64,000 nucleotides of DNA, from the NCBI GenBank assembly GCA_965115985.1, contig OZ220474.1:3172504-3236503 (forward strand). The letters are read 5' to 3'. The translations under genes and the position numbers were made by a program. Below, piece by piece: positions 22,987-64,000 of the stretch (positions within the stretch are counted from its first letter, which is position 1; each line of letters starts with the position of its first letter). A model generated the notes under the pieces. The model was not told the DNA's origin. It saw only the letters and a program-made list of their open reading frames with translations, and made no database searches. This stretch comes from Acidimicrobiales bacterium (lineage in GTDB: Bacteria > Actinomycetota > Acidimicrobiia > Acidimicrobiales > Bin134).

Positions 22987-23050
22987 CGTCCATGGACGTT
23001 ACATCAGGCTGCTACGCTGAAGTGGCGATCGTTGAGGAGGGAGGTGTCTG

Positions 23051-26751: not shown

Positions 26752-26774
26752 ACCATTCGTCATCGCCTGGCCCG

Positions 26775-26791
26775 CCCCCCCCCCCCCCCCC
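26775..26791 (+). repeat. C17 homopolymer tract at the right edge of the accessory island
   Basis: 17 consecutive C residues read directly from the sequence, followed by an AT-rich 60 bp. Confidence 0.9.
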
Positions 26792-26867
26792 GAACCGGTG
26801 GCCATCTGTTTAGGGGAGGGAATAATGTGTCTAATATGCATTGAGAGTTATTAGAGGTTGTCAGCAG

Positions 26868-27581: not shown

Positions 27582-27628
27582 GATCCCAGCATGGCAGATC
27601 GCTCCCGGCGGGTTGCTACAGTCCCGCC

Positions 27629-28837: not shown

Positions 28838-28865
28838 TTGGTGGTGCTTCGGGTTCGGGCTGGGA

Positions 28866-34979: not shown

Positions 34980-34994
34980 ACCAGCAACCCTTTT

Positions 34995-35010
34995 GGGGGG
35001 GGGGGGGGGG
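34995..35010 (-). repeat. G16 on the plus strand (C16 on the coding strand), 15 nt upstream of the GTG start of the 2037-aa gene
   Basis: The run length is confirmed by two plus-strand ORF translations crossing it (five GGG codons plus one g). Confidence 0.95.
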
Positions 35011-35223
35011 CGAAGCGATCATCGCGGCCCTGGACCGCGAACCACTACCATGCATCATCGAGCACCTCTCAAGCACATGGCCCGACCCGCACAAGGATCG
35101 GAACCAACACAACCAGCATCAAGCCCCGAACAGTAACCAACCCCTCAACCCCAAACAAGTATTTCCTCGGGGGTGGTGCCCCTCGGGAGGAGATCCAGGT
35201 GGTCGGCACGAAGCCCCTGGGAA

Positions 35224-37494
35224 CTACGCGCCGCGGCCGGCGATGAGCTGTTGCAGGGCGTCCTCGTCGCCCACCAGCTCCGACACCAATCCCTCGTCCA
35301 CGTCGGCCACGATTATCTCCCCCACCTCGTCGGACACCGATGTGAAAAAGCCCAGCTCCTTCATGCCCGCGGTCTGGCGGTAGTTGTCGTCGGTGGGGGT
35401 CAAATACTGGACCGACACCGCGTTGTAGCGCCGAATCAAGTACAGGTGCATCAGTGCCATCAGCCGCTTGCGGCGTAGAGCCGGGCTGTGGGTGTTCTGG
35501 TCCCGTACCGACAGGATGGCCCTCCCCCGCCGATCGTGCAGCACCCCGAACACCACATTGGCCAAGTCCTTGTCGCCGCTGAGCACCACCAGTTGGAGAA
35601 CCTCGGAACCCGCGGTGTAGGGCCGCAGTCTCACCTTGAGGTCGGCATCAACGTGGTTGTGCAGGGCCCACCGTTGCAACCATGCTTCCAGCTCCCGGGT
35701 GGGCACCTCGGTCTGGACGAGGTGCTGGAACTGGGTGGAGCCCTTGCCCATGGCCCGGGTGGTGGCGGTGCGCCCGGAACTGGCCATGAGCGCGGCGTCC
35801 AGACGGGGGCCGCCCACCAGGGTTTGCGGGGTCCGGTAGGGGGAGTCCACCAGGCGGAACCTCCGCTGGAGCCGGGCCAGGGCCAGCATCCCGTCCTGTT
35901 GGAGGGAGGCGGCGAACTCCTCGCCGGCCATGCCGTCCACCTGGTGGCCGCCGTAGGTGATGAAGTTGAAGACGAACCCCATCCGGCCCAGTTCGGCGGG
36001 GAACTCCCGCATCTCGTCCTCGCTCATCCCGGTGGTGTCCCAGTTGAACGACGGCGACAGGTTGTAGGCCAGCATCTTGTCGGGATGCACCGCGTGGATG
36101 GCCTCGGCGAACTCCCGGGCGTCGTTCAGGTCGGCGGTCTTGGTCTCCATCCACAACAGGTCGCAGAACGGGGCCACCGCCAGCGACTTGGCCACCGCGT
36201 AGGGTATGCCGCCCTGCACCTGGTAGTAGCCCTCGGTGGTCCGGGCCACCTCGGGATCCCAGGTCACGTCGAGGCCGAGCTCGGTGGCTCGGGACCGGGC
36301 GGTGGCGGTGTCGACGCCGGCGGCGAAGCCCAGCCACTCCCCCACTCCCATGTCGAAGGTCTCCCCCTCCGATGATCGCAGCGCCAACTGGTCGGCCACC
36401 GCCTGGGGATAGGTGGCCAGCCCCGCGGCTCGGTGCCAGGCCTCGGCCAGGGCGTCGGAGACCCGGTCCACCGCCTCGTCGGGCCGAGGATCGGGCGACG
36501 CGTGGTAGGCCACCATGGCCTTCTCGATCTCCCGACCGACCCCCGACTGGTCGAGCCAGGCCGAGGCCCGGCCATAGCGGCTCTCGGGCACCGCGTACAG
36601 AAGATGACCGTTGACCCCTTCCACCCCGGCCTCGGCGAGACGGCGCAGCACGGCCAGATAGGCATCCTTGTACGAGGGAACCGACGGCTGGGTGGCCCCC
36701 ATGATGAACGGCTGGTCGCGCTCGTCGGTGCCGCCGTCCAACAGGTTGGCCGCCTCGGCGTCGGTGCGGGCCACGATGATGCCGGCCACCCCCATCACGT
36801 CGAGCTGGAACCGGGCCGCGTTGAGCCGCTTGATCTGCTCGTCGCACGGCACCAGCACCTTGCCGCCCTGGTGGCCGCACTTCTTGAGCCCCGGCTTCTG
36901 GTCCTCGATGTGATAGCCCGGTACCCCGGCCTCCACGAAACGGCGGATCAGATTGCGGACATGAGGATCACCGCCGTGACCGGTATCGGCGTCGGCGATG
37001 ATCGTGGGGGTGAAATCGACGATGGGAGTGGTCTGGCGTTCCGCAGCGCTCATCCGGGAGCGGGCGAACCGCTGGTTCCGGTCGGCGGTCAAAAGGGCCC
37101 GCACCAACCCGGCCGCCTCGTCGGGCACCATGCTCAACGGATAGCTGGCCAGGTCGGGGCCGGGATCCTCGTGCCGGGCCCCCTTGGCCGACGTGGCCCA
37201 TCCCCCCAGGTATATGCCCTCGATCCCCGCCCGCTTCATGGCCACCGCCTGGCCCGGCGAGTACGGACCGAACGTGGAGATGCACCGCCCCTGGTCGAAG
37301 AGCTCCCTCAACCGACTGTGGAAGCGCTCGGCCGCCACCCGGGCCACGGGGTGGTCCTGGGCGATCACCCCCCGCTGCTCCACCACCTGGCGGGCCGAGT
37401 ACAGGCGGGTCACCCCCTCGAAACGGGACGAGGCCATCCACTCCCGGGTGGATTCGACCTCGGCATCGAACGAACCGGCAGCGTTGACGGTCAT
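35224..37494 (-). CDS. aceA: Isocitrate lyase, long (ICL2/AceAb-type, 756 aa)
   Basis: ICL signature KKCGHQGGK. The N-terminal [28 protein letters not shown] is typical of ICL. An extra internal/C-terminal domain gives the ~750 aa length. Confidence 0.9.
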
Positions 37495-47461: not shown

Positions 47462-48343
47462 CTAGAATGTGAGCAATAGGCGATCTGATACTTGTTCATC
47501 CTCGAGTGTCTCTCCACCACGCTGAAACCTCCGCAATTGAGAGACTCCACAATTAACAAAAGCCTCGCGTTCGAATAATCCATCCGGAAGCTCAAACTCA
47601 ATAGTTCGTTGTCCAGACTTTTTAGTTCCATCAATACTGAGCAAGACAGCTACACCTCGGTCTTTGCATTCGCTAATTACATGGACCAGACGATCCAGTT
47701 TAAAGGTCTGTGCGCCATATAGTATTGCTTGAGTATCGCTATACGGAGGATCGCAGTATACGACATCTCCAGCCTTAGTTTGGCTCATTGCTTCTTCAAA
47801 ATCACAATTGGTGAAGGTTGTACCAGATACTCGTCTCGTCCAAATATCGACACGATTATCAAAAGAAGCTGGAGTAACCGGATTATGCGGTCCGCACGGT
47901 GTAGACATGTAACCATCCGCTTGCCTGAAACGAACGACCCCTCCGTAGCAGGAACGCGTCAGAAATAAAAAATCAGCAGCGTTTGGCTCTGTGTTGTAAG
48001 AGGTCTTGATGTCCTCATAAACCTCTAGTTTATTTCCTGCTTCCATTCGATTCCAGCGCTCACGATACCAATTCTTCAAAGTCTCTGGGTCTATTCGGAG
48101 TGTCTTCCATATATCAATAAGCGGTTTGAAAGCGTCCGACCCGTAACCAACCTCTGGTGCCAGTGTCCCAAGAACTGCGCCACTGCCCAAGAATGGTTCA
48201 TGATAAGCATTCCTGTCCTCAGGGAAGTAAGAGACGATCTCATGGGCAAAGCGCTGCTTGTTTCCGATCCACTTCAGTAGTTGTGTCTTGAACGGCCGGA
48301 TCGCTGGGCGAACGTCGTCGATGTGGAAAGCGAGTTGATGCAT
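47462..48343 (-). CDS. Dam-like (D12 class) N6-adenine DNA methyltransferase
   Basis: LLKWIGNKQRF, motif I EPFLGSGAVLG, motif IV CDPPY. AT-rich gene. The ATG at 48343 is preferred over the TTG at 48373. Confidence 0.85.
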   Translation of the reverse strand: MHQLAFHIDDVRPAIRPFKTQLLKWIGNKQRFAHEIVSYFPEDRNAYHEPFLGSGAVLGTLAPEVGYGSDAFKPLIDIWKTLRIDPETLKNWYRERWNRMEAGNKLEVYEDIKTSYNTEPNAADFLFLTRSCYGGVVRFRQADGYMSTPCGPHNPVTPASFDNRVDIWTRRVSGTTFTNCDFEEAMSQTKAGDVVYCDPPYSDTQAILYGAQTFKLDRLVHVISECKDRGVAVLLSIDGTKKSGQRTIEFELPDGLFEREAFVNCGVSQLRRFQRGGETLEDEQVSDRLLLTF

Positions 48344-48406
48344 GTTCCCGAACCTAGCCGAGCAGTGCGACAACGATGGTGTCCACTCCGTTTAGAGAGC
48401 GACTCC

Positions 48407-48431
48407 CTGGTCATCGTAGCACGATGACCAG
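48407..48431. promoter_or_regulatory. Perfect 11-bp inverted repeat with 3-nt spacer upstream of the methylase gene
   Basis: ctggtcatcgt-agc-acgatgaccag was read directly from the sequence. It could be an operator or a hairpin. The function is unknown. Confidence 0.4.
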
Positions 48432-48463
48432 GCACGATGGCCGATGCATTGTCAGCGGCGACC

Positions 48464-48600
48464 TGGTGTGGCCCCGGTTTGGTGGGCACCTGATTCAGGG
48501 TGTGGGTGCTGTGACCTGGAGGGAGGATGTCCGTGTGGGTCGTGCGTCCGAGTGCTCGTCGGGGTTCCATCGAGGGACGGCTGGTCAGGCGGCTTCGCTT
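48464..48600 (+). mobile_element. Remnant of an IS3-family element (terminal IR plus 5' orfA region)
   Basis: tggtgtggccccggtttggtgggcacctgatt resembles the IR of the intact IS at 24309-25588. The following sequence resembles its orfA start (GTGGGTCGTGCGTCCGAG vs ATGGGTCGTGTGTCGAAG). No transposase body follows. Confidence 0.5.
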
Positions 48601-48753
48601 GTCAGCACCGGGAGTCTCGTTCGATGCGAGCAAACTGCCTGGTAGAAGCACACGCCCGCCGCTGCTGGTCTCGAAGTGCCAGCAGGGTGGATGGTCCAAT
48701 GAACCAAAGAATCCTGAATTGGGATATCTTAGAATCGGGTCTAGACAAAGGGC

Positions 48754-48993
48754 GTGGAGAAAAGCATCGGAACCGCAGAGCATGCCGCGCTGGCAGCTTT
48801 GCTCCGAAGGCTGCGGGTCGAAGCTGGACTTCGACAATCCGAACTCGCAGAACTTCTTGAGGAACCTCAGTCCTTCGTCAGCAAGTACGAGTCGGGTGAG
48901 CACCGACTTGATCTAGTGGAGTTAAGGACAATTGCGCTTCACTTGGGTCTGGATATCATCGAACTATCACGCAAGTTTGAGAGATCTTTGTGA
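48754..48993 (+). CDS. XRE-family HTH protein, controller (C) protein candidate of the R-M cassette
   Basis: LRRLRVEAGLRQSELAELL..SFVSKYESGEHRLDLVEL is an HTH_3 pattern. 79 aa. Its stop overlaps the GTG of the downstream endonuclease candidate (GTGA). Confidence 0.7.
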   Translation: MEKSIGTAEHAALAALLRRLRVEAGLRQSELAELLEEPQSFVSKYESGEHRLDLVELRTIALHLGLDIIELSRKFERSL

Positions 48994-49811
48994 AACCACA
49001 CGATGAGTTTTTCAACCGAGAGAAGAGTTTCTGGGCGCACGTGCGTGCTATCAGCGAAACAGTTGGCTATACCAAGCGTGGGAGTGGGCTAGTAAAGGCT
49101 CCAACGGAGAATGAAATAAAAAGTGCTCTAGACAAGCGCGGTCTAGATGGGTCACGCACTTTATATAATGGCCTAGCTTTGGATTTGTACGCTTACTTCC
49201 AATATCGATCGAAAGTTCTAAATGAGGAGGTTGAAGGGCTCCTGATGGATGCTGATGAAGCAGAGAAACTGTTTGAAGAGCAGCACAATCTGCTGAGTCC
49301 AACCTGTCCAATCCCGATGAATAAACAAAAGGGCAAGATGAAAAAGCCAGCGTTTCTGACAGGACTTGTCAATATGCTTGTGGAAGCACATATCAATGGA
49401 ATGCCTTGCGACTATGATCCACGCTCCCTAACAACATTTACCAAAGACGGGGCACCACTTAGGACGCTCGCGAGACGTGTCGACGGTGCGTTTCCTTCTA
49501 CAGTTAATCCAAAGGCTATTTGGGAGATCAAAGAGTACTACTACACCACTACGTTCGGGAGCAGAGTTGCAGATGGTGTTTATGAGACTCTACTGGACGG
49601 AATGGAACTCGAAGAACTTCGGATGAACGAGGGCGTTAAGGTTCATCACTACTTGATGGTTGATAGTTACTACACGTGGTGGGAGTGTGGACGATCCTAT
49701 CTTTGCAGAATAATAGATATGCTTAATATGGGTCTTGTAGATGAAGTTCTTTTTGGCCGAGAGGTTGTGTCAGAACTGCCCCGTATCGTCCGTGGGTGGC
49801 TCACGGAATAA
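48990..49811 (+). CDS. Type II restriction endonuclease candidate (PD-(D/E)XK-like)
   Basis: AT-rich 273-codon ORF. VDGAFPS..x10..WEIKEY fits a D...(D/E)xK core. It is translationally coupled to the HTH gene and divergent from the methylase. No specific family was recognised. Confidence 0.5.
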   Translation: MKPHDEFFNREKSFWAHVRAISETVGYTKRGSGLVKAPTENEIKSALDKRGLDGSRTLYNGLALDLYAYFQYRSKVLNEEVEGLLMDADEAEKLFEEQHNLLSPTCPIPMNKQKGKMKKPAFLTGLVNMLVEAHINGMPCDYDPRSLTTFTKDGAPLRTLARRVDGAFPSTVNPKAIWEIKEYYYTTTFGSRVADGVYETLLDGMELEELRMNEGVKVHHYLMVDSYYTWWECGRSYLCRIIDMLNMGLVDEVLFGREVVSELPRIVRGWLTE

Positions 49812-51195: not shown

Positions 51196-51224
51196 CCCGA
51201 TGGCTTACCACAGCGATTACCGGG

Positions 51225-52448
51225 TTAGCCGACGGCGAAATCCGGGTTGGGGGTGAACGTGAGCGGCAGCGAGGTCAGGCCCCGGGTGTAGACCCCGGTT
51301 TCGACCTGCTGGTAGCCATCGGCGTAGGCGATGTCGTCCATGGCGTCCAGCAGGGCGTCCATGGCCACGGTGAGCTCGGCCCGGGCCAGCATCGACCCCA
51401 CGCAGAAATGGCGGCCCAGTGCGAACGCGGTGTGGTTGGCCGCGGCGGTGAACGCCTTGTCGAACTCCAGGTCGGAGCGGTGGATGTCGAACCGGTCGGG
51501 TTCGCCGAACACCTCGGGATCCCGGTTGGCCGAACCCAAAAGCAGCTCAAGGGTACGACCCGCCTCCACCGTGCCCCCGGAGAACTCCACGTCCTCCTCG
51601 GTGTGGCGCATGATCATCTGCACCGGCCCGGTGTAGCGCAGCGTCTCGGCGAAGGCCCGGCCGATGAGTTGACGGTCGGCCCGCACCTCGGCCATCTGGT
51701 CGGGGTTGTCCAGCAGGTTCCGCATGGTCAGGGTGATGGCCTTCTCGGTGGTCTCTCCGCCGGCGGTCAGCAAAAGACTGCAAAACCCCCGAATGTCATC
51801 GTCGCTCATCCGGACACCGTCGAACTCCTTGGTCACCATGGCGGTGAGCAGGTCGTCGCCGGGGTTGGCCCGCCGCTCGGCGATCTTGGGCATCAGGTAC
51901 TCCCCCATCTCCTTTCGAGCCGCCATCCCCCGCCGGTTCTTCTCCTCGTCACCGGTGATGTTGGAGACGAAATCCATGATCATCGTGTACCACTGGTGGA
52001 ATTGGGGCACGTCCTCCATGGGCAGGTCGAGGAGCTGCACGATCACCCCGATCGGGTAGTAGGTGCTGAATCGGCGGCACAGATCCACCTCTCCGTCGGC
52101 CAGGAACTCGGCGATCTGGCTGCGGGCCGCCCTGGTGATGGCGGGCACGATGCTCTGCTCCAGGTAGCTGCCCCGAAAGATCGGGTTGACGATGCCCCGG
52201 TAGGAGGAGTGCTCCTTGCCCTCCATCTGGAGGATGGTGCGACCGTGGACCGGCTCGGTCTGCCACTCGTAGTTGCGGCTCGAAACCTTGGGGTTGCGGA
52301 AGGCTCCGGCCACGTCCTCGTAGCGGCTGATCACGTAGGCCTGGGTGCCCTCGTGCCACATCACCGGGTACTCGTTGCGAAGCACCTCGTAGTGCGGATA
52401 GGGGTCGGCATCGTACTGGGGGGACAAGATGTCAGGAGCAGCAGTCAT
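51225..52448 (-). CDS. Cytochrome P450
   Basis: Heme loop FALGRHFCVGSMLA, ETLR K-helix motif, AGGETT I-helix. The start is placed at Met104 of the track ORF (MTAAPDILSPQYDADPYPHY). Confidence 0.9.
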   Translation of the reverse strand: MTAAPDILSPQYDADPYPHYEVLRNEYPVMWHEGTQAYVISRYEDVAGAFRNPKVSSRNYEWQTEPVHGRTILQMEGKEHSSYRGIVNPIFRGSYLEQSIVPAITRAARSQIAEFLADGEVDLCRRFSTYYPIGVIVQLLDLPMEDVPQFHQWYTMIMDFVSNITGDEEKNRRGMAARKEMGEYLMPKIAERRANPGDDLLTAMVTKEFDGVRMSDDDIRGFCSLLLTAGGETTEKAITLTMRNLLDNPDQMAEVRADRQLIGRAFAETLRYTGPVQMIMRHTEEDVEFSGGTVEAGRTLELLLGSANRDPEVFGEPDRFDIHRSDLEFDKAFTAAANHTAFALGRHFCVGSMLARAELTVAMDALLDAMDDIAYADGYQQVETGVYTRGLTSLPLTFTPNPDFAVG

Positions 52449-52569
52449 GATCCATATAATATGACGGTTGATGACACTCCGACCGATCGTGCCGGCCGTG
52501 CAAGCGCGATCCGAAGCAGGCCACTTCATGTCCTCTGCCCAGCCCACCATTCTCTGGAGGCGGCTATGA

Positions 52570-52588
52570 CCCCCCCCCCCCCCCCCCC
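52570..52588 (+). repeat. C19 homopolymer tract upstream of the ~3631-aa gene
   Basis: 19 consecutive C residues, 6 nt before the TTG at 52595 and 39 nt before the ATG at 52628. Confidence 0.9.
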
Positions 52589-52627
52589 AATCAATTGCGG
52601 TTGTCAAGCTCGAGTCCGAGGCGACGA

Positions 52628-55600
52628 ATGGTTCGGAATAACCGAACCATCGCTCGCGAGGCACTGTCGCCTTCGCGGTTCCTGGCGCTTGCCGTTGCCT
52701 TCCTGCTGGTGCTGACGGTGACCCACGCCGTGTATTCGCCCGAACCCGCCACAGCACAAGCCGCGGTGCCGGTACTCACGGGCACCCCGGCCAATGCCCA
52801 GGTGGCCCTGTCCTGGGTCTACCCCACCGACCCCAACATCACCAACTGGCAGTATCAACAGAAGAAAGATGCGGCGGTCTACGGCGATTGGAGCGACATC
52901 GACGGCTCTGACGCCGGCACCCGCGGCCACACGATCACGGGCCTTACCAATGGCGCGGTCTACGGCTTTCGTGTTCGTCCTGTGATCGGAAGCACCCCCG
53001 GCACCGCATCCAGAGAGATCACGGCCACCCCGCGTGGTATCCCCTCTGCTGCGACAGGCCTCACCGCCACGCCCGGTGACGGGCAGATAACTCTGTCGTG
53101 GGACAGGCACCCGGATGCCAGCATCTCAGGCTGGGAGTTTTGGTACAAGCCGACGGATCTCTACCAGGGGGGCAGCTGGGCACCCATAGCTGGTTCTGAT
53201 GCCACCACCACCAGCCACGCGGTCACTGGCTTGACCAACGGAAGGGAATACGTCTTCCAGATTCGTGCCGCCAACCGGATTGGTCGCGGACCCATATCAG
53301 CAGAGGTCAAGGCCACGCCCGTAGCCGCCCGGCCCGCTGCGCCGACCGGTGTCACCGCGACTGCGGGCCATCAGCAGGTGAGCTTGTCGTGGAGCGACCC
53401 TGGCCAACCCAGCATCACCCGCTGGCAATATCAACAAAATGACGGTACCGGCTACGGCTCGTGGACGAACATGGCCGACTCCACTGCGACAACCACCAGC
53501 TATACGGTGACGTCCCTCACCAATGGCACTGCCTACAAGTTCAAGGTCCGTGCGGTGAATGACAGGGGGGCCGGTACCCCATCAGCAGAGGTTACAGCCA
53601 CGCCAACACTCCCTCCGCCTGCCAGACCTACGGGTTTTCGAGCTTTGGGATCGGGTCCTATAACGAATCCTGTCACCGGCTACTATGCGGGTCGGCTGAC
53701 GTTTTATTGGGATAATCCAAATGATCCCACGATCACCAAGCGGCAGTATTACGAGCATGACTTTGGAAGAAGGTGGATAGATCTAGCCAATTCCGGTGCT
53801 GATACCACAAGTGCTTCGATTCGAGTGAGCGCAGGTATTGGATTGCCATACAGTATTCGTGCCTGCAACATGGCAGGATGTGGTGCATCTACTGCTCGAA
53901 CTGGCTTTGTCAGGCCGAATCGACGGGATCCAAGGCCGGCGAAGCCGACCGGCCTTACCGCTACTGAAGTGGGTGATGGATTTGTGACATTGTCTTGGGA
54001 CAACCTGGGGGATTCCGGCATCGGCTATTGGCATGTTCGGTGGTGGGTGGTTGGGAGCAGTCGCCCGAACTGGGATGCAAGCCTTTCCCAGGTAGCCAGG
54101 GTTGATGGCGCAACCAATACCACCTATAAGGTGGAGCGTTTGACGAGTAATGAGGAGTACGAATTTCAGATCAGGGCGTACTATTCCTCGGGAAACAAGG
54201 CGAACATTCAGGACTCGGATACGATACGTGCTACTCCGATATCGGCACCTGGTATACCCGGCGGGTTTCGTGCCATAGGTGGGGATACGCAGGTTACTTT
54301 GTCATGGAACAAACACAGAAGTTCTGGTATCACCCGGTGGGAATATCAGCAAAGGAAAGAACCAAGTGGAACGGGCAAGTTTGGTGACTGGATTCCCATC
54401 CCAGGTTCCGATACTGCTACCACCAGTCACACTGTAACCGGTCTTCAGCAAGGAGGCACATACACCTTCAAAGTTCGTGCTGTGAACCGTATCGGCAATG
54501 GTCTAGCCTCAGCAGAGCGTACCACTGTCGCTGAGACAGATGCAGAGGTGCCTTGCAGGGTAGTCCTTTCGGACGCTTTGGGTAGCAATATTAGGAGCGG
54601 TCAAATACGGGTTAGTTTTGACATACTTGTTCCGGAAAACTGCGGGAAGATCACCTTTTTTGATTATCAAGCCAAGACTCTCAGCCAAGACTGGGACGAT
54701 GTGAACTGGCAGCCTGTGACCAATTTCAATGGAGATGATTTCGAGAATATGCCGACCTTTCAAGTACGTAAAAACGCCGCAGAGTCAGATGTATCAGTAA
54801 CTTCCCCCCAGAATTTGGATGTACGCATTCGGGCAGAAAACTTAGGCGCGCTTGAGGAGGGTCCGCCCTCTGATCCAGTGCGGATTTGGGCTGGGGATGC
54901 TCCGGCTGTTACCGGACTCAGGGCGGCAGGCAACGATAGGTCGGTCACCTTGTTTTGGGACCCCAAGCCTGACCGGGGCGTTATACATTGGGAATACGGA
55001 TACAAGCCTGATGGTGGGAATTGGTCAACTGATGTGCAGCTAGATGCTAAAGCCTCCATGACTCGGGTCTCCGGTCTGGCCAATGGAACCGAATACACGT
55101 TCCGTTTGCGGTCCCAGTCAGGGTATAATGGCGTGAAGAGCGATTGGGTTGAAACCACAGCCATACCAACAGTTACACCGCTCGGTGTTACGGTTTCTGA
55201 GTCTGAGTTGACCGTGGCGGAGGGCAGCAGTGGCACCTACACGGTCAAGTTGAACGCCGCCCCGTCTGACGATGTAACAGTTTCGATAATCGGGTCCTCT
55301 GGCGATGTGACGGTGAGTCCTCCCAGTCTGACGTTTACCACCAACAACTTCAACAGTGTGCAAACGGTGACAGTTTCGGCAGCCAAGGACGATGATGCAA
55401 TCATTGACCCTCCGGTGACTTTGACGCACAGTGCCTCTGGAGGGAGTTATAGCTTTGTGGATATCGGTTCTGTATTGGTGAAGGTCACAGACAGGGACAC
55501 CGCTGGTGTTACGGTTTCCGAGTCTGAGTTGACTGTACGGGAAGGCACCAGTCAGACCTACACCGTGAAACTTGATACACGAGCCCAGGAGAATGTGACG

Positions 55601-58600
55601 GTTTCGATAAGCGGAGCCTCTGGTGATGTGACCGTGTCACCTGAGAAACTGTTCTTTACCACCAGTAACTTCAACACTGCCCAGACGGTGACTGTGGCAG
55701 TTGGAAGTGACTCGGATTCGGTTGACGATCCGCCGGTTACTTTGACACACGCCGCATCCGGAGGAGATTACGGCGGCGTGAGCATTGACTCACTGACGGT
55801 GAATATCACTGACTCCAATCCACCTGCGGCACCAACAGGTCTGACGGCAACGTCAGGTGATACGAGCGTTGATTTGTCGTGGAACGATCCCAGCGACCCA
55901 AAAATCACCAGTTGGCAATTTCAGTACAAACCCGATGGCGGTAGCTACGGTGGATGGGCGGGGATTGCCAACTCTGGTGCCTCCACCACCACTCACACAG
56001 TCACGGGCCTGACCAACTACACGGAATACACCTTCCAGGTTCGCGCCGTCAGTGCCAATGGCGAAAGCGATCCCTCCAACGAAGCTACGGCAACGCCGAA
56101 GGCACCACCACCCGCAGCACCAACCGGCTTGACCGCCACTCCCGGTGACGGAGAGGTTACTTTGGGTTGGACCAACCCCAGCAATGCCAGCATCACCCGC
56201 TACGAGTATCAGCAGAAGATCGGTACCGGTAACTACGGTGCATGGACGGCGATTGCCAGCTCTGGTGCCTCCACCATCAGTCACACGGTTGCATCCTTGA
56301 CGAACGGCACTACTTACGCCTTCAAAATTCGAGCGGTGAACTCCACCGGCAATGGTGCAGCCTCAGCCGAGGCAACCGCCAGGCCGCTACCGCCTCTACC
56401 TGCAGCACCGACCGGCTTTACAGCTAATCCTCGCGATGGATCGGTACTGCTGCTTTGGTCTGATCCAGGTAATGCCAGCATAACGGGTTATGAGTTTCAG
56501 TTGAAGATGGGCAATAACTATGGCCCGGAGTGGGCACCGATTTCAGGCTCTGATGCGCTTACTACCGAACACATAGTCCCAAACTTGAAAAACGGTACTG
56601 CCTATACATTCAGAATCCGAGCGGTGAATCTGGCCGGCAAGGGTGCGCCTTCCGCCGATTCGACCGCGACCCCAATACCTGTGCCCGAAAGTCCTAGGAA
56701 ATTCGAGACTATTGGAAGTGATGAGCGGGTGACCTTGTATTGGGCTAATCCGAAGGATCCCACGATCACGAAGTGGCAGTATCGATACAGACTTTGGACT
56801 CTTCAGATCCCCGGTTTTCAGAGTCCGCCGAACCCTTTTGGCGCATGGACGGATATGAGTGGCTCTGATGCCACCACTACAAGCTTCGCGGTTACGGGAT
56901 TGACTAGCGGTACATTTTATGATTTCCAAATTCGTGCCGTTAACGTCGCCGGTGACGGCTTAGCTTCTAAAGTACTTACGGAAGCGGCAATCGCTAAGCC
57001 GGCTAGGCCGAGCGGCCTTACCGCTACTCCAGGTGATGGACAGGTGACCCTGTCTTGGGACGATCCTAAGGATACCAAGATCAGTCATTACCTTTTAAGG
57101 TACAAGGCCCCCACTGATTTTATTCATCCACCATGGGTTGAGAGCCATGCGCAGGTATTCAAGGTTGACGGCGCAACTGCTGTCACTTATACTGTGACAG
57201 GTTTGAACAATGGTACGACCTATGACTTCCAAATTGTGGCGTACCACATATCAACACCGGGCACTGCGTCGAAGTCGGTGCGTGTTGCTCCCGTGTCACC
57301 GGCACCGGCCAAACCCACTGGTTTGACGGCCACGGCTGGTGTGAGATCAGCGATGTTGTCTTGGACTGATCCCAATGACGATTCGATAACCATCTATGAG
57401 TACCGTCAAAGGAAAGGCAGCGATAGTTGGGGTGGCTGGACTCTGATTCCTGGTTCGGGTGCTGAGACTACGTCTCACACGGTGTCTGGCTTGGATTATA
57501 CCGATGATTACCGGTTCCGGATACGAGCCAAAGGCACCACCGGCAATAGCCCAGCATCAGAGGTAGTAACAGTCGCGCCCGCTTTCGGCACCCTGAGCAT
57601 TGCTGATGTGTCAGCAGATGAAGGCGGCACGTTCACCTTTACCGCGATGGTCAGTGCTGCGCCTCCTGAGAACCTGGATTTCAAGTATACTGTCACGGCA
57701 GAAACTGGTGATACGGCTATACCTGGTACGGACTTCACGGCAGTAACCATTGCAACCGCGGCCCGCATAAATGCCACCGAGACCAGCACCACTATCACAG
57801 TGACAGTTAACGATGACGGCGTGGTTGAACCTGATGAGACGTTCACGGTCACTCTTTCGGACGTGCCGGAAAGCATAATTTTGGCCGATGTAACCGCGCA
57901 GGGCACGATCACCAATGACGACAACACGCCGGTGCTGACTGCGATTGACAACTTCACGATCAAACGTGGTCAAACGGTTGACATAACAGCTTCTGCCACT
58001 GATGTGGATGCCTCTGATGCGATCACTTACTTGTGGGCGCGTAAGGCTGGTGAGACTCCTGCGGCACCTGCTGGGATCACTCTTGGCCAAGCACAGTTGA
58101 CGTTCACGCCGACGGCACTAGGAGCTTACACGTACACGGTTACCGCGTCAGACAACCACGGTAACGAGACTACTGAAGAAGTGATTATTACCGTGGTCGA
58201 GGCTGCCACAGTGTCAAAGTCCAGCATCGAACTCACTGAAGGTGCTAATGGCACGTACACGGTGAAGTTGAACTCCGTGCCGAGCGGTGATGTGACGATC
58301 ACGGTTGGTGGGGCCACTTCTGATGTGACGGTGGACAAGTCCTCGTTGACGTTCACCACATTGAACTGGAGTTCGGCTCAGACGGTCACGGTCACCACAG
58401 AGGCGGATGAGGACACCACCGACGAAACGGTCACGTTGACCCACACCGCTTCGGGTGGTGGCTACGTCTCGGCAACCATCGCATCCGTGAGGGTTTCGGT
58501 GACCGATACGACGCCTACCTTCCAGCTCCTCACTGATCCGGCTGATGTGACCGAGGGAGATAACATCAGCCTCACGGTCACGTCGGACATGTCGCTTACG

Positions 58601-61600
58601 GGAACCAAGCAAGTAACCCTGACACTGGCCGCGAGATCATCGAGCACTTTTGATGCTGATGATATTCCAGGCACTCTAGGCCCCAGATCCTTCTCAGCCA
58701 ACTTTGGGAGCAATCCCAGCAAAACCGGAACCATATCAATTCCTACCAGCAGCGACTCGGACACCGAAGGTACGGAAGCCTACCGAATCACCCTCAATGA
58801 AGGGACCGGTTACGCGGCGGGCACGGATAAAAGAGCAGACGGCAACTTGCTCGACCTGGCTCCTCCTCCGACCATCAATTTGAGTGTTGGTGATGTGTCG
58901 GCTTTGGAGGATGGGACGTTCACGTTCACTGTGACGGCTAATCCGATACCGACTGAGGGGATCAGTTTCAAGTACAAGGTGACCGCCGAGACCACCGATA
59001 CCGCTACCGCTACCGATGACTTCACCGCGGTGACCACTGCTACGGCCAAGACCATCGCAGCCAACACTGCTACTACGACGATTGTTGTCACGGTCGTGGA
59101 CGACGACCTGGACGAAAAAAACGAGACATTCACAGTGACCTTGTCCGACCCGTCCGACGGCGTTACCATCAGTGATGCGACTGCTACGGGTACCATTAAT
59201 GACAACGATAATTCGCCGGTGTTGACCGCGATTGATGATGATACCTTGTACTTGGGTCAGCAAGTCGATATCAGAGCGACGGCCACTGACGCCGATGCCG
59301 ACACGATCACTTACACGTGGGCGCGCAAGGCCGGTGAAACTCCTGCGTTGCCTGGTGGTACTGCTTTGAGTGATAGGCGTTTGCGGTTCACTCCTACCGC
59401 TACGGGCACCTACACGATGACGGTCACCGCATCCGACGGTAACGGCAACTCCGCCACCGAGGAAGTGGTGATAACCGTTATCAACGCGGCCACCGTGTCG
59501 AAGTCCGCGTTGACCGTCGAGGAAGGCAGCACCGGCAGCTACACGGTGAAACTCAACGCCGAACCCACCGGTAATGTGACCGTCACCGTTGGTGGTGTTT
59601 CGGGTGATGTGACGGTGGACAAGTCCTCGTTGACTTTTACCACGACCGATTATGCCACTGCTCAAACGGTGATGGTGACCGCTGCTGGTGATGAGGACAC
59701 CACCACCGATCCGACCGTGACCTTGACCCACACCGCTTCGGGTGGTGGCTATGGTTCCGCGACGATCACGTCGGTAGTGGTAACTGTCACGGAGAACACG
59801 CCGACGCTTACATTGGGAAATAATCCTGCCGCGGTGACCGAGGGCGACAATATTTCTCTGACCGTCACGTCGGACCGATCCCTGACGGGAACTCTCCAAG
59901 TCTCGCTCACGCTGGCCGATCGAGGATCCAGCGGATTCGACGCTGCTGACATCGCCGGCTCCTTGGGTCCACGAAACTTCACCGCCACCTTCGGCAACAC
60001 TGCTTCCACCACCGGGACAATCACCATCGCAACCAACACCGACACCAACGACGAAGGCGCAGAAACCTACACCATCACCCTGAACGACGGCACCGGCTAC
60101 GCCATCGGCACGGACACCACCGCCGAAGGAACCATAAACGACCCCACCCCAACACCCACCCCCACCCCCACCCCAACACCCACTCCTGTTCCTACGGTGT
60201 CGTTGAGCATTGCTGATGTGTCGGCTTCGGAGGATGGGACGTTCACGTTCACTGTGACGGCCAATCCGATACCGACTGAGGGGATCAGTTTCAAGTACAA
60301 GGTGACCGCCGAAACCACCGATACCGCTACCGCTACCGATGACTTCACCGCGGTGACCACTGCTACGGCCAAGACCATCGCAGCTAACACCGCCACCACG
60401 ACAATCACTGTAGTGGTGGTGGACGACGAGCTGGATGAAAAAAACGAGACGTTCACGGTGACTCTGTCGGACCCGTCCGATGGTGTGATTATTGGTGATG
60501 CGACTGCCACGGGTACCATCAACGACAACGATAATTCGCCGGTGTTGACTGCGATTGATGACGACACCTTGTATTTGGGCCAGCAAGTCGATATCAGGGC
60601 GACGGCCACCGATGCGGATGCCGACACGATCACTTACACGTGGACGCGCAAGGCCAGTGAAACTCCTGCGTTGCCTGGTGGCACTACTTTGAGTGATAGG
60701 CGTTTGCGGTTCACTCCTACCGCTACGGGCACATACACGATGACGGTCACCGCATCGGATGGCAGCGGCAACTCCGCCACCGAGGAAGTGGTGATAACCG
60801 TTATAAACGCGGCCACGGTGTCGAAGTCCGCGTTGACCGTCGAGGAAGGCAGCACCGGCAGCTACACGGTGAAACTCAACGCCGAACCCACCGGTAATGT
60901 GACCGTCACCCTTGGTGGTACGACCAGCGATGTGACGGTGGACAAGTCCTCGTTGACGTTTACTACCTCGAATTGGAGTGCGGCTCAGACAATCGTGGTT
61001 ACCGCAGAGGCGGATGAGGACACCACCGACGAAACTGTCACGTTGACCCACACCGCTTCTGGTGGTGGCTACGCCTCGGCGACGATTGCGTCCATAAGCG
61101 TTTCGACGACCGATACTACGCCCACTTTCCAGCTTCTCACCGATCCGGCTGATGTGACCGAGGGTGGCAGCATCAGCCTGACCGTCACGTCGGACATGTC
61201 GCTTACGGGAACCAAACAGGTGAGTTTGACGTTGGCGGCGAGGTCGTCGAGTACTTTCACTGCTGCTGATATCGTAGGGACACTAGGGCCCAGGTCCTTC
61301 TCGGCTGATTTTGGTAGTACTCCCAGCAAAACTGGAACCATCTCGATTGCTACGAGTAGCGATTCGGCCACCGAGGGTACGGAAGCCTACCGGATCACCT
61401 TGAACGATGGTGCGGGTTATGCACTGGGTATGGATAAAAGAGCAGACGGCAATCTGCTCGACCCGACCCCTACTCCGACCATTAATTTGAGCATTGCTGA
61501 TGTGTCGGCTTCGGAGGATGGTACGTTCACGTTCACGGTCACGGCCAGTCCGATACCGACTGAGGGGATCAGTTTCAAGTACAAGGTGACCGCCGAAACC

Positions 61601-63523
61601 ACCGATACCGCTACCGCTACCGATGACTTCACCGCGGTGACCACTGCTACGGCCAAGACCATCGCTGCCAACACCGCCACCACGACGATTGTTGTCACGG
61701 TCGTGGACGACGACCTGGACGAGAAGAACGAGACGTTCACGGTGACCTTGTCCGACCCGTCCGACGGCGTTACCATTAGTGATGCGACTGCTACGGGTAC
61801 CATTAATGACAACGATAATTCGCCGGTGTTGGTTTCCATCGAAGACGACACCTTGTACCTGGGTCAGCAAGTCGATATCAGAGCGACGGCCACCGATGCG
61901 GATGCCGACACGATCACTTACACGTGGGCGCGCAAGGCCGGTGAAACTCCTGCGTTGCCTGGTGGTACTGCTTTGAGTGATAGGCGTTTGCGGTTCACTC
62001 CTACCGCTACGGGCACCTACACGATGACGGTCACCGCATCCGACGGTAACGGCAACTCCGCCACCGAGGAAGTGGTGATAACCGTTATCAACGCGGCCAC
62101 CGTGTCGAAGTCCGCGTTGACCGTCGAGGAAGGCAGCACCGGCAGCTACACGGTGAAACTCAACGCCGAACCCACCGGTAATGTGACCGTCACCGTTGGT
62201 GGTGTTTCGGGTGATGTGACGGTGGACAAGTCCTCGTTGACTTTTACCACGACCGATTATGCCACTGCTCAAACGGTGATGGTGACCGCTGCTGGTGATG
62301 AGGACACCACCACCGATCCGACCGTGACCTTGACCCACACCGCTTCGGGTGGTGGCTATGGTTCCGCGACGATCACGTCGGTAGTGGTAACTGTCACGGA
62401 GAACACGCCGACGCTTACATTGGGAAATAATCCTGCCGCGGTGACCGAGGGCGACAATATTTCTCTGACCGTCACGTCGGACCGATCCCTGACGGGAACT
62501 CTCCAAGTCTCGCTCACGCTGGCCGATCGAGGATCCAGCGGATTCGACGCTGCTGACATCGCCGGCTCCTTGGGTCCACGAAACTTCACCGCCACCTTCG
62601 GCAACACTGCTTCCACCACCGGGACAATCACCATCGCAACCAACACCGACACCAACGACGAAGGCGCAGAAACCTACACCATCACCCTGAACGACGGCAC
62701 CGGCTACGCCATCGGCACGGACACCACCGCCGAAGGAACCATAAACGACCCCACCCCAACACCCACCCCCACCCCCACCCCAACACCCACTCCTTCGCCA
62801 CAAAGTCCACCTGGAACCATGCCCAGCACGCCTACGGGAGTGACCGCCACTGTGGGTGACACCGAGGTCACCATCTCCTGGTCCAGCGGCGGCACCGGCA
62901 ATGGCGGCACCTGCGCCTCCGACAAGTACTACGTCACCGTCTACGACGCCACCCAGCAGCTCTTCCCCGCGGTGGCCGAGTCGCTGCCCATGATCAGCGG
63001 CACGAGTTGGTACATAGACGAACTCACACCCAGCACCCGCTACTACGTCGAAGTGGAAGCCTGGGGCGATGCCTGCGAAGAGTACTCCGAAGAACTCGGC
63101 ACCGCGTTCTTCACCACCAACGCATCCTCCAGCACCGGCGACCCCAGTGCTCCCGTCCCTCGTAAAAAACGCGCCCCCGCCCCCGTCAGAGACCTGGAGG
63201 TGGACACCAGTACCAGCGGGCAGATAACCATCACCTGGAAAAAACCCATCGACATCGGCACCAATCGCAGCAAACGCTGCGCCTACACTGCCGAAGCCTC
63301 CGACCACGCCGACCTTTCCATCGAATACAATTACCTCGTCGAAAACCTCTACTCCGGCACCGACATCACCGACTCATACTTCACATCCAACGCGGCCACC
63401 CTGTCCAAAACCATTACCGGCATACCCACGGGAACCGGCCACCGCCTACGAGTAACGGTAACCGCCTACTCCGAACAATGCGGCTATTGGTCCAACTCCA
63501 GCGACCACACATGGTGGTCTTGA
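52628..63523 (+). CDS. Giant secreted FN3 / Calx-beta / cadherin-like / Ig-like repeat protein (~3631 aa)
   Basis: The signal peptide is MVRNNRTIAREALSPSRFLALAVAFLLVLTVTHA. Many FN3 units follow, up to about 57.5 kb. Then come four ~430-aa super-modules, each with a Calx-beta-like segment (TAETTDTATATDDFTAV...DDDLDEKNETFTVTL), a cadherin-like segment and Ig-like segments. Two Cys-containing FN3-like units close the protein. A TTG at 52595 is an alternative start. Confidence 0.85.
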   Translation: MVRNNRTIAREALSPSRFLALAVAFLLVLTVTHAVYSPEPATAQAAVPVLTGTPANAQVALSWVYPTDPNITNWQYQQKKDAAVYGDWSDIDGSDAGTRGHTITGLTNGAVYGFRVRPVIGSTPGTASREITATPRGIPSAATGLTATPGDGQITLSWDRHPDASISGWEFWYKPTDLYQGGSWAPIAGSDATTTSHAVTGLTNGREYVFQIRAANRIGRGPISAEVKATPVAARPAAPTGVTATAGHQQVSLSWSDPGQPSITRWQYQQNDGTGYGSWTNMADSTATTTSYTVTSLTNGTAYKFKVRAVNDRGAGTPSAEVTATPTLPPPARPTGFRALGSGPITNPVTGYYAGRLTFYWDNPNDPTITKRQYYEHDFGRRWIDLANSGADTTSASIRVSAGIGLPYSIRACNMAGCGASTARTGFVRPNRRDPRPAKPTGLTATEVGDGFVTLSWDNLGDSGIGYWHVRWWVVGSSRPNWDASLSQVARVDGATNTTYKVERLTSNEEYEFQIRAYYSSGNKANIQDSDTIRATPISAPGIPGGFRAIGGDTQVTLSWNKHRSSGITRWEYQQRKEPSGTGKFGDWIPIPGSDTATTSHTVTGLQQGGTYTFKVRAVNRIGNGLASAERTTVAETDAEVPCRVVLSDALGSNIRSGQIRVSFDILVPENCGKITFFDYQAKTLSQDWDDVNWQPVTNFNGDDFENMPTFQVRKNAAESDVSVTSPQNLDVRIRAENLGALEEGPPSDPVRIWAGDAPAVTGLRAAGNDRSVTLFWDPKPDRGVIHWEYGYKPDGGNWSTDVQLDAKASMTRVSGLANGTEYTFRLRSQSGYNGVKSDWVETTAIPTVTPLGVTVSESELTVAEGSSGTYTVKLNAAPSDDVTVSIIGSSGDVTVSPPSLTFTTNNFNSVQTVTVSAAKDDDAIIDPPVTLTHSASGGSYSFVDIGSVLVKVTDRDTAGVTVSESELTVREGTSQTYTVKLDTRAQENVTVSISGASGDVTVSPEKLFFTTSNFNTAQTVTVAVGSDSDSVDDPPVTLTHAASGGDYGGVSIDSLTVNITDSNPPAAPTGLTATSGDTSVDLSWNDPSDPKITSWQFQYKPDGGSYGGWAGIANSGASTTTHTVTGLTNYTEYTFQVRAVSANGESDPSNEATATPKAPPPAAPTGLTATPGDGEVTLGWTNPSNASITRYEYQQKIGTGNYGAWTAIASSGASTISHTVASLTNGTTYAFKIRAVNSTGNGAASAEATARPLPPLPAAPTGFTANPRDGSVLLLWSDPGNASITGYEFQLKMGNNYGPEWAPISGSDALTTEHIVPNLKNGTAYTFRIRAVNLAGKGAPSADSTATPIPVPESPRKFETIGSDERVTLYWANPKDPTITKWQYRYRLWTLQIPGFQSPPNPFGAWTDMSGSDATTTSFAVTGLTSGTFYDFQIRAVNVAGDGLASKVLTEAAIAKPARPSGLTATPGDGQVTLSWDDPKDTKISHYLLRYKAPTDFIHPPWVESHAQVFKVDGATAVTYTVTGLNNGTTYDFQIVAYHISTPGTASKSVRVAPVSPAPAKPTGLTATAGVRSAMLSWTDPNDDSITIYEYRQRKGSDSWGGWTLIPGSGAETTSHTVSGLDYTDDYRFRIRAKGTTGNSPASEVVTVAPAFGTLSIADVSADEGGTFTFTAMVSAAPPENLDFKYTVTAETGDTAIPGTDFTAVTIATAARINATETSTTITVTVNDDGVVEPDETFTVTLSDVPESIILADVTAQGTITNDDNTPVLTAIDNFTIKRGQTVDITASATDVDASDAITYLWARKAGETPAAPAGITLGQAQLTFTPTALGAYTYTVTASDNHGNETTEEVIITVVEAATVSKSSIELTEGANGTYTVKLNSVPSGDVTITVGGATSDVTVDKSSLTFTTLNWSSAQTVTVTTEADEDTTDETVTLTHTASGGGYVSATIASVRVSVTDTTPTFQLLTDPADVTEGDNISLTVTSDMSLTGTKQVTLTLAARSSSTFDADDIPGTLGPRSFSANFGSNPSKTGTISIPTSSDSDTEGTEAYRITLNEGTGYAAGTDKRADGNLLDLAPPPTINLSVGDVSALEDGTFTFTVTANPIPTEGISFKYKVTAETTDTATATDDFTAVTTATAKTIAANTATTTIVVTVVDDDLDEKNETFTVTLSDPSDGVTISDATATGTINDNDNSPVLTAIDDDTLYLGQQVDIRATATDADADTITYTWARKAGETPALPGGTALSDRRLRFTPTATGTYTMTVTASDGNGNSATEEVVITVINAATVSKSALTVEEGSTGSYTVKLNAEPTGNVTVTVGGVSGDVTVDKSSLTFTTTDYATAQTVMVTAAGDEDTTTDPTVTLTHTASGGGYGSATITSVVVTVTENTPTLTLGNNPAAVTEGDNISLTVTSDRSLTGTLQVSLTLADRGSSGFDAADIAGSLGPRNFTATFGNTASTTGTITIATNTDTNDEGAETYTITLNDGTGYAIGTDTTAEGTINDPTPTPTPTPTPTPTPVPTVSLSIADVSASEDGTFTFTVTANPIPTEGISFKYKVTAETTDTATATDDFTAVTTATAKTIAANTATTTITVVVVDDELDEKNETFTVTLSDPSDGVIIGDATATGTINDNDNSPVLTAIDDDTLYLGQQVDIRATATDADADTITYTWTRKASETPALPGGTTLSDRRLRFTPTATGTYTMTVTASDGSGNSATEEVVITVINAATVSKSALTVEEGSTGSYTVKLNAEPTGNVTVTLGGTTSDVTVDKSSLTFTTSNWSAAQTIVVTAEADEDTTDETVTLTHTASGGGYASATIASISVSTTDTTPTFQLLTDPADVTEGGSISLTVTSDMSLTGTKQVSLTLAARSSSTFTAADIVGTLGPRSFSADFGSTPSKTGTISIATSSDSATEGTEAYRITLNDGAGYALGMDKRADGNLLDPTPTPTINLSIADVSASEDGTFTFTVTASPIPTEGISFKYKVTAETTDTATATDDFTAVTTATAKTIAANTATTTIVVTVVDDDLDEKNETFTVTLSDPSDGVTISDATATGTINDNDNSPVLVSIEDDTLYLGQQVDIRATATDADADTITYTWARKAGETPALPGGTALSDRRLRFTPTATGTYTMTVTASDGNGNSATEEVVITVINAATVSKSALTVEEGSTGSYTVKLNAEPTGNVTVTVGGVSGDVTVDKSSLTFTTTDYATAQTVMVTAAGDEDTTTDPTVTLTHTASGGGYGSATITSVVVTVTENTPTLTLGNNPAAVTEGDNISLTVTSDRSLTGTLQVSLTLADRGSSGFDAADIAGSLGPRNFTATFGNTASTTGTITIATNTDTNDEGAETYTITLNDGTGYAIGTDTTAEGTINDPTPTPTPTPTPTPTPSPQSPPGTMPSTPTGVTATVGDTEVTISWSSGGTGNGGTCASDKYYVTVYDATQQLFPAVAESLPMISGTSWYIDELTPSTRYYVEVEAWGDACEEYSEELGTAFFTTNASSSTGDPSAPVPRKKRAPAPVRDLEVDTSTSGQITITWKKPIDIGTNRSKRCAYTAEASDHADLSIEYNYLVENLYSGTDITDSYFTSNAATLSKTITGIPTGTGHRLRVTVTAYSEQCGYWSNSSDHTWWS
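57593..62809. repeat. Four ~1.3-kb coding super-repeats (1287, 1323, 1284, 1323 bp) forming a 2607-bp higher-order repeat
   Basis: Unit starts at 57593, 58880, 60203 and 61487. Antisense ORFs 59749-60048 and 62356-62655 translate identically (offset 2607). Units 2 and 4 are identical over roughly 300 aa. Confidence 0.95.
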
Positions 63524-63569
63524 TAAACCAAACCACGGCTAAACCAAACCAACGACTAAACGGAAACCC

Positions 63570-64000
63570 ATGAGCAAAACCACCCCACCGGAACAGACAA
63601 CCCCACTGTCCAAGACGACCTCGTTGGAACAGGCCGTAGCGTCGATTCCCGACGGGGCCACGGTGGCCATCGGTGGGTTGTCGATGAACAGCGCCCCCAT
63701 GGCTCTGGTGCGTGAGTTGGTGCGCCAGGAGAAGAAGGACTTGAGCTTGGTGGCCATCGTGGCCGGTATGGCGGTGGACTGGCTGGTGGCCGGGGGCTGC
63801 GTGCGCCGAGTGATCTCCGGGCTGGTCAGCTTCGAGGGACTGGGCCTGGCTCCCAATTTCAGGGCCGCGGTGCAGTCGGGCCGGGTGGATATAGAGGAAT
63901 ACAGCGAACACCTGCTGATCTGTCGGCTTCAGGCCCAGAGCTACGACCTGCCGTTCGTGCCCACCAGGGCCGGGCTGGGCACCGACGTCCTCGGCCTGCA
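63570..64000 (+). CDS. CoA-transferase subunit A family protein (3' end outside window)
   Basis: Own translation gives MSKTTPPEQTTPLSKTTSLEQAVASIPDGATVAIGGLSMNSAPMALVRELVRQEKKDLSLVAI..., a typical family I CoA-transferase alpha N-terminus. The frame is open to the window end. Confidence 0.7.
   Translation, partial: MSKTTPPEQTTPLSKTTSLEQAVASIPDGATVAIGGLSMNSAPMALVRELVRQEKKDLSLVAIVAGMAVDWLVAGGCVRRVISGLVSFEGLGLAPNFRAAVQSGRVDIEEYSEHLLICRLQAQSYDLPFVPTRAGLGTDVLGL

Follow-up and report, generated by a model that had tools for sequence, protein, structure and literature searches.

What can an uninterrupted run of 19 cytosines do when it stands directly upstream of a gene for a 3631-amino-acid (aa) secreted protein? 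This question arises in a 64,000-nucleotide (nt) stretch from an Acidimicrobiales bacterium (contig OZ220474.1 of assembly GCA_965115985.1), which we call the window and whose own numbering we use throughout. The run, named T1, occupies positions 52570-52588 on the plus strand, and the gene behind it, named giant-1, occupies positions 52628-63523 on the same strand. With modest confidence, we lean toward the view that T1 is a contingency locus of the slipped-strand type, placed in the translation-initiation region of a giant gene that was horizontally acquired and whose secreted product carries FN3 and Calx-beta domains. T1 would govern the amount, and possibly the N-terminus, of this host-facing protein, mainly via a leader or extended reading frame. 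The original prediction had singled out T1 as a phase-variation candidate acting in a promoter or 5' untranslated region (UTR). Its core stands, since an extreme homopolymer does lie 5' of a giant secreted gene and has parallels at a second giant gene, giant-2, and in a related genome, L051; it is revised in part in that we favor an effect on the reading frame.

The C19 tract and the insertion that carries it

T1 is a pure C19 run with an A on each side (...GGCTATGA-C19-AATCAATTGCGG...). The window has a G+C content of 64.3% and zero N, and a run-length histogram revealed a maximum homopolymer length of 7 for all four bases, bar three outliers: C17, G16, and the C19 of T1. C runs of at least 19 nt are expected 1.7e-5 times in the window if bases are independent and 3.2e-5 times under a first-order Markov model, which bears out the earlier claim that the 19-C run at 52570-52588 lies beyond chance. 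Slippage rate climbs steeply with run length. Contingency loci are built on pure, slip-prone repeats, which for homopolymers means ~8 nt or more, and the C19 run is such a repeat. The position originally described was also correct: T1 is located between a divergent cytochrome P450 gene (51228-52448, minus strand) and the giant-1 open reading frame (ORF), with 39 nt from its end to ATG 52628 and 6 nt to TTG 52595. T1 is a genuine feature of the assembly, in which its length is a consensus value that might be off by one (18 or 20).

Pfam searches assigned 12 fn3 domains, four Calx-beta domains, and He_PIG/PKD/Big_9 domains to giant-1. The N-terminus resembles a signal peptide ending in ...PATAQA, with AVPVLTG... 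as the predicted start of the mature protein. Further into the gene, four tandem modules of ~1.29-1.32 kb (57569-62750), composed of Calx-beta/He_PIG/PKD units, share 60-93% DNA identity and are a putative substrate for recombinational length change.

Relatives were drawn from GTDB species representatives, among which we compared 48 P450 loci, 29 of them Poriferisocius-like. In all 29 related loci the P450 gene and a CoA-transferase gene are direct neighbors in divergent orientation, with 52-70 nt between them, and none of the 48 loci carries the giant gene. BLASTN against L001, the closest relative, aligned window positions 51219-52473 and 63611-64000, two blocks that are separated in L001 by 31 nt. 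The intervening segment of the window (52474-63610) is 11.1 kb long and consists of 96 nt, C19, 39 nt, giant-1, and 87 nt. Its G+C content is 53-61% versus ~67% in the backbone, and no integrase or transposase was found with it. By this comparison, giant-1 with T1 appears as a lineage-specific single-gene insertion. Because T1 sits 96 nt within the insertion, it would have either arrived with giant-1's own 5' region or arisen in it.

The nearest matches of the P450 (87-95% aa identity, 29 loci) come from metagenome-assembled genomes (MAGs) named Candidatus Poriferisocius, Acidimicrobiales, or 'Sva0996'. Judged by genus name and by published work (PMC11706023), these MAGs represent sponge-associated actinobacteria, and the host of T1 is a sponge symbiont, Ca. 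Poriferisocius, of the Acidimicrobiia. Sponge-symbiotic Acidimicrobiia are enriched in FN3/Calx-beta eukaryotic-like proteins and in defence systems (PMC11706023).

Start signals and the frame of the leader

Read 5' to 3', the region contains GGAGG, 5 nt, ATG 52566, A, C19, 29 nt, GAGG, 6 nt, and ATG 52628. The first of these start codons (52566-52568), which was absent from the original prediction, abuts T1 (ATG-A-C19) and is preceded at a distance of 5 nt by GGAGG (52556-52560), a Shine-Dalgarno (SD)-like motif. A second SD-like motif, GAGG (52618-52621), precedes the annotated start of giant-1, ATG 52628, by 6 nt. From ATG 52566, a leader ORF (52566-52715, plus strand) encodes 49 aa at C19 (MTPPPPPPINCG...) and ends at the stop TGA 52713-52715.

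Varying the tract length in silico gave this leader ORF three different ends. At C17, C20, and C23 it joins the giant ORF to give a 3651-3652-aa product (MTPPPPPPNQLRLSSSSPRRRMVRNN...) that starts with MTPPPPPP. At C18 and C21 it ends at TAA 52639-52641, 11 nt beyond the A of ATG 52628. At C22 and at C19, the assembly state, it runs for 49 codons out of frame and crosses the annotated ATG 52628. The original prediction had remarked that a start further upstream would make the tract frame-determining, and this has become the stronger reading, as a GGAGG-ATG pair abuts T1 and fusion results at C17 and C20.

These frames suggest how T1 could act. From what is established about such runs, replication slippage would often alter the length of T1. 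For a ribosome starting at ATG 52566, tract length would then pick fusion, early stop, or overrun. At C17, C20, or C23, the ribosome would read directly into the giant ORF; at C18 or C21, the stop 11 nt past ATG 52628 would present a geometry favoring termination-reinitiation; and at C19 or C22, out-of-frame passage over ATG 52628 would presumably block initiation at this annotated start. A symbiont population would thereby be a mix of cells with much, little, or no giant-1 protein. A transcription-level effect, via the spacing of a promoter or via the leader RNA, may supplement the translational effect or replace it.

The annotated start is itself embedded in an inverted repeat (52621-52657), whose core palindrome, ATGGTTCGG-AATAA-CCGAACCAT (52628-52650), consists of a perfect 9-bp stem and a 5-nt loop, with arms that extend to 16 nt. 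ATG 52628 opens the first half of this palindrome, which occurs nowhere else in the window (0 expected by chance). In the predicted fold of the leader RNA, the poly-C is single-stranded and ATG 52628 lies inside a stem; the fold z-scores are unremarkable. The palindrome could fold into an RNA hairpin that hides the start codon, or serve as a repressor operator. A start codon placed in a unique predicted hairpin would be consistent with initiation that depends on an upstream ribosome opening the structure.

Signals for transcription were sought as well. A consensus scan of 52300-52800 gave no sigma-70-like promoter above threshold, a weak test for a host whose promoters are uncharacterized, and on inspection no TANNNT hexamer stands directly 3' of T1. 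Within the limits of that same weak test, the arrangement in which a tract separates a -35 or activator element from a -10 element was not found at T1. Scans near the tracts of the window returned no usable promoters or terminators, and no Rfam family matched anywhere in the window.

Further tracts in the window and in a relative

The second tract, T2, is a C16 run on the minus strand (34995-35010; G16 on the plus strand) that lies 15 nt before GTG 34979 and 214 nt after the stop codon of the isocitrate lyase gene. This GTG opens giant-2 (28866-34979, minus strand), which encodes a 2037-aa secreted FN3 protein with the signal peptide MGRRRFSGWGLLVVV...KATAQG and, like giant-1, with PT linkers. 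Together giant-2 and T2 form a 6.4-kb insertion (28833-35233) with isocitrate lyase on one side and a gene for an MFS transporter on the other; in 10 of 10 related isocitrate lyase loci, the isocitrate lyase, MFS, and SDR genes are contiguous and giant-2 is missing. Upstream of T2, frame analysis identified an ATG-ATG pair (35053-35058, minus strand) led by GAGAGG. In silico, the frame from this start fuses to giant-2 at C15 and C18 and overruns at C17; with the C16 of the assembly, its stop codon is TAG 34974-34972, which overlaps the GTG start (GTGGGTAG). T1 and T2 lie immediately 5' of the window's only two giant signal-peptide FN3 genes, and by this frame analysis changes of one nt in either direction alter the leader product at both.

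The third tract, T3, is a C17 run (26775-26791, plus strand) located 24 nt after the stop codon of a DUF6036/AbiEii-like gene and 72-76 nt from the junction with the core SDR gene. It stands at the edge of a small defence island that comprises a C5 methylase, an NTase-HEPN gene, and the DUF6036/AbiEii-like nucleotidyltransferase. At 23 nt 3' of T3, GGAGG (26815-26819) leads ATG 26825 and a 9-codon ORF (MCLICIESY). T3 may be an orphaned poly-C and start module, or a 3' element. With three tracts in 64 kb, the window has several such runs, and the genes behind T1 and T2, like the L051 gene described below, belong to the surface or defence classes in which contingency loci occur.

Initiation signals are found close to each tract: GGAGG-ATG 4 nt before T1, GAGAGG-ATGATG 48 nt before T2, and GGAGG-ATG 33 nt after T3. 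Pairs of an SD-like motif (GGAG or GAGG) with ATG occur at 6.7e-4 per nt per strand in the window, which corresponds to a 3.3% chance of one within 50 nt. The stricter GGAGG-ATG pair occurs 15 times, both strands together (~0.6% chance of one within 50 nt), and two of the nine plus-strand pairs adjoin tracts (52566, before T1; 26825, 33 nt after T3).

Long tracts are equally exceptional among relatives. In 814 kb of Poriferisocius-like loci, the G/C runs comprised 36 of length 7, one of 8, one of 9, and a single G19. Run lengths over 878 kb are therefore bimodal (at most 9 or at least 16, with none between), and the long tracts are thus not the tail of a background distribution. The G19 lies at L051:15940-15958, in an SDR-methylase island hot spot that L051 shares with the window. 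L051 is the closest relative by isocitrate lyase (92% identical) and an independent assembly from another sample, with the contig ctg6961_194x_c at 194x. The gene that contains the G19 (15730-17752) begins at ATG 15730 with 70 codons (...LLVREAIQNSWDAARERYISDN), continues with Gly6, and then runs for ~600 codons in another frame. When joined at G18, it encodes 673 aa that match PADLOC PDC-M33A across the junction (residues 50-206, E=2.2e-8), and its neighbors encode DUF6339, two C5 methylases, and NaeI. The G19 thus looks like an intragenic contingency tract in a defence gene, either out of frame or miscalled by one base.

The recurrence at T2 and the G19 of L051 suggest that this clade may have a few contingency loci that act on surface and defence functions. 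We found no shared motif or mobile element around the tracts, and because they lack common flanking sequence, T1, T2, T3, and the L051 G19 appear to be independent in origin. Protein searches for orthologues of both giant N-termini gave generic FN3 proteins (at most 58% identity) or nothing; two FN3 matches that were fetched (L049 and L050) contain no long runs; and neither the T1 flank nor the L051 flank had a match in JGI metagenomes.

The hot spot itself (window 21279-27818; L051:13760-22271) lies between a conserved C5 DNA methylase gene and the SDR gene. In the window it holds the NTase-HEPN gene, a 408-aa ORF without assignment, and the DUF6036/AbiEii-like genes; in L051 it holds a coiled-coil repeat protein, the G19 gene, DUF6339, a methylase, and NaeI. 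One L051 gene (14654-15328) consists mostly of ~11 copies of a 33-nt repeat (VESRFDMVDSRFEK) and ends in a transmembrane segment; its product is potentially a further length-variable surface protein near the defence island. Elsewhere in the comparison set, L054, L055, and L056, and likewise L057 and L058, are independent 4-14x assemblies with identical isocitrate lyase proteins in which several genes are split or merged differently. This suggests consensus indel errors and calls for caution about frame states read from such MAGs.

Both genes that border the giant-1 insertion are core genes. The P450 gene (Pfam p450, E=2.7e-32) appears leaderless, with TATTAT 7 nt 5' of its ATG (52449-52470); TACTAT is conserved at this position in 29 relatives. 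The insertion replaced the sequence in which a -35 element of the P450 gene would sit. We considered T1 as a regulator of P450 and rejected this, as relatives keep the same leaderless-looking start and a 52-70-nt intergenic region without the tract. The CoA-transferase gene (63570-64000, plus strand) marks the right edge of the insertion, where (63570-63640) an imperfect local duplication lengthens its N-terminus by ~12 aa compared with the relatives (MSKTTPPEQTTPLSKTTSLEQA versus MSKITPLEQA). Adjoining the P450 region, a low-GC (~52%) patch (47462-49811) encodes a Dam-type N6-adenine methyltransferase and a DUF7690/DUF7687 protein and is probably a restriction-modification island.

Precedents, competing explanations, and meaning

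Switching by slippage in such tracts is a known mechanism, including in Actinobacteria. Neisseria, Haemophilus, Campylobacter, and Helicobacter have intragenic poly-G/C loci, among them the pilC signal-peptide region and phase-variable restriction-modification genes (for phase-variable repeats in Neisseria, see the work cited in PMC11287997). As at the loci described here, the homopolymer in these systems follows the start codon or lies in early coding sequence, a change of one nt toggles the frame, the targets are surface or defence functions, and several loci occur per genome; the defence-gene G19 of L051 is an exact match to this pattern. In contrast to our loci, the Neisseria-type tracts are usually 8-14 nt long and their switching has been demonstrated experimentally, and T1 differs further in that a second in-frame start lies 3' of the tract, so that OFF may be incomplete. 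In Bordetella pertussis, fim2 and fim3 resemble T1 in that a long pure C run stands just 5' of a gene for a surface structure; within a single culture, the poly(C) of the fim3 promoter ranged from 11 to 16, and one C more or less shifted Fim3 output (PMC10172299). However, the fim tract spaces the BvgA~P site from the RNA-polymerase site, whereas no promoter or activator site could be placed at T1, where an SD-ATG precedes the tract and an effect on the translational frame is no less likely. T1 is also longer (19) and its host is an actinobacterium.

The original prediction was not aware of the mechanism as a common one in high-GC Gram-positive bacteria, a premise that the literature contradicts for Cutibacterium acnes (PMC4746626), Mycobacterium tuberculosis (PMC10334774), and Gardnerella, in which homopolymer-linked variation is documented (PMC11287997). 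The tracts of C. acnes, likewise a member of the Actinomycetota, are nearly all G/C and affect adhesin genes, including the dermatan-sulphate adhesin and other putative PT-repeat surface proteins, in their 5' UTR or early in the coding sequence; upstream positions account for two thirds of the tracts, and some tracts follow genes (PMC4746626). PT linkers occur in both giant proteins of the window as well. Unlike those loci, the genes here are FN3 giants of 2037-3631 aa on single-gene insertions in a sponge symbiont, and variation in C. acnes was clade-bound and slow, whereas here each locus is represented by one genome. In the M. tuberculosis complex, reversible G/C frameshifts in glpK (7C), ESX-1-associated genes, and frd provide an actinobacterial parallel in which homopolymer phase variation is adaptive (PMC10334774; bioRxiv 10.1101/717272). 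MutSL is absent there, and NucS leaves 1-2-bp indels, which were found to go unrepaired in M. smegmatis (PMC11551767). These mycobacterial tracts differ from ours in being ~7-9 nt long and in lying in metabolic and secretion genes, not 5' of giant adhesin-like genes.

Several observations weigh against the contingency-locus reading. In none of the three frame-testable tracts (T1, T2, and the L051 G19) is the upstream start in frame; OFF states would explain this, and so, equally well, would errors in consensus length or upstream ATGs that go unused. Tracts of 16-19 nt may also be long enough for RNA-polymerase slippage, which would blur DNA-encoded ON and OFF states. The annotated starts (ATG 52628 with GAGG; GTG 34979 with AAGG) yield signal peptides of normal length, extended N-termini would give unusually long ones (~65 aa), and no Tat or extended-signal motif was recognized in the hypothetical extensions. 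T3 lies between convergent genes, with no gene to control. The scans located no promoter, the tract loci are known from one genome each, and neither giant N-terminus has an orthologue in the protein database searched. In C. acnes, tract lengths track clades, which its authors read as slow change and not as active switching (PMC4746626). The frame states, the annotated starts with their own SD motifs, the position of T3, and the clade-bound tracts of C. acnes would likewise be expected of a neutral by-product, as would the location of every tract in accessory or inserted DNA. By that account, slippage expanded the runs in dispensable, recently acquired DNA where mismatch repair ignores small indels, and giant-1 is translated from ATG 52628 at any tract length or is not needed; the tracts would be hypermutable without being selected switches. 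We consider this unlikely, though deserving of real weight, given that run lengths over 878 kb are bimodal, the tracts are pure, strong SD-ATG signals adjoin them far above chance, the only two giant secreted genes each have one of the three tracts ahead of them, and surface and defence genes are the classic contingency classes.

The tracts might instead work at the RNA level, as a Rho-loading (rut-like) site or attenuator, through EF-P-dependent stalling on the poly-proline leader (MTPPPPPP), or through RNA-polymerase slippage that yields a fixed mix of frames. Poly(C) is the classic strongest activator of Rho ATPase, ribosomes stall on consecutive prolines, and long homopolymers provoke transcriptional slippage. 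In keeping with such a role, folding predicts that the poly-C of T1 stays unpaired, and the stretch of 26 nt that leads up to GGAGG (52530-52555) is rich in C and poor in G. Stop codons stand 24 nt before T3 and 214 nt before T2, no intrinsic terminator was found after the isocitrate lyase or DUF6036 gene, and each of the three window tracts reads as C in the sense orientation of adjacent transcribed genes. This shared orientation carries just the weight of a 1-in-8 chance, however, and the L051 tract is sense-strand G and clearly intragenic. The unremarkable z-scores and the lack of an Rfam match in the window count against it as well, and termination or stalling finds no support. An RNA-level role seems improbable to us as the explanation of T1, and it is compatible with DNA slippage, not exclusive of it. 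We think it very improbable that the tracts act through DNA structure, with a G-quadruplex or i-motif stalling replication and promoting recombination so that the tracts mark acquisition scars or hot spots. A G-quadruplex at pilE drives pilin variation in Neisseria. All three tracts do reach the 15 nt that we infer as the minimum for an intramolecular G-quadruplex with 1-nt loops, they lie 72-223 nt from a junction of core and lineage-specific DNA, and the four 1.3-kb modules of giant-1 could recombine. Yet closeness to a junction is trivial for the 5' end of a single-gene insertion, T1 lies 96 nt inside the insertion and not at its breakpoint, the L051 tract is mid-gene, and no silent donor copies, nearby integrase or transposase, or shared flanks were found. 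A sequencing or assembly artefact, whether spurious homopolymer or mis-join, had been allowed for originally. The source is a MAG, consensus lengths of long homopolymers are error-prone, and public assemblies do contain poly-G artefacts, such as the G43/G24/G74 that closes an Illumina contig of Trujillonella humicola (L032:15376-15518). Such runs stand at a contig end or join with nothing coherent beyond. T1, in contrast, is internal, with conserved collinear genes on both sides and no N; the three tracts differ in length and flanks, and their placement beside SD motifs and start codons is biologically coherent. Because, in addition, the independent 194x assembly of L051 has a G19 that encodes Gly6 within a gene, with a defence-family match spanning it, an artefact is scarcely credible.

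The contingency-locus reading can be extended to a three-state switch, in which an SD-led poly-proline leader ORF is read so that tract length modulo 3 gives fusion, reinitiation at a masked start, or occlusion, and in which a module headed by poly-C moves from one sponge symbiont to another together with giant eukaryotic-like genes, in the form of single-gene cassettes, T3 being an orphaned copy. We regard this full model as a speculative and improbable proposal. If true, it would be a variant of the contingency locus with graded instead of binary output, and an unrecognized route for sponge symbionts to diversify their host-facing surface.

What is new here is the uncultured sponge-symbiont host, the giant FN3/Calx-beta targets as single-gene cassettes, the tract length of 16-19, and the possible three-state logic of the leader ORF; literature searches found no description of hypermutable-tract switching in sponge symbionts. 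In practical terms, gene callers will mis-start or split genes that bear such tracts, and the consensus tract lengths of MAGs conceal heterogeneity in the population. The interest of T1 rests on its host-interaction setting. FN3/Calx-beta proteins and defence systems are thought to mediate host recognition, escape from phagocytosis, and phage resistance (PMC11706023). If giant and defence genes sit behind hypermutable tracts, clonal symbionts would keep yielding cells that differ in surface and defence state, and such variation, if true, would be bet-hedging of the kind known from pathogens.

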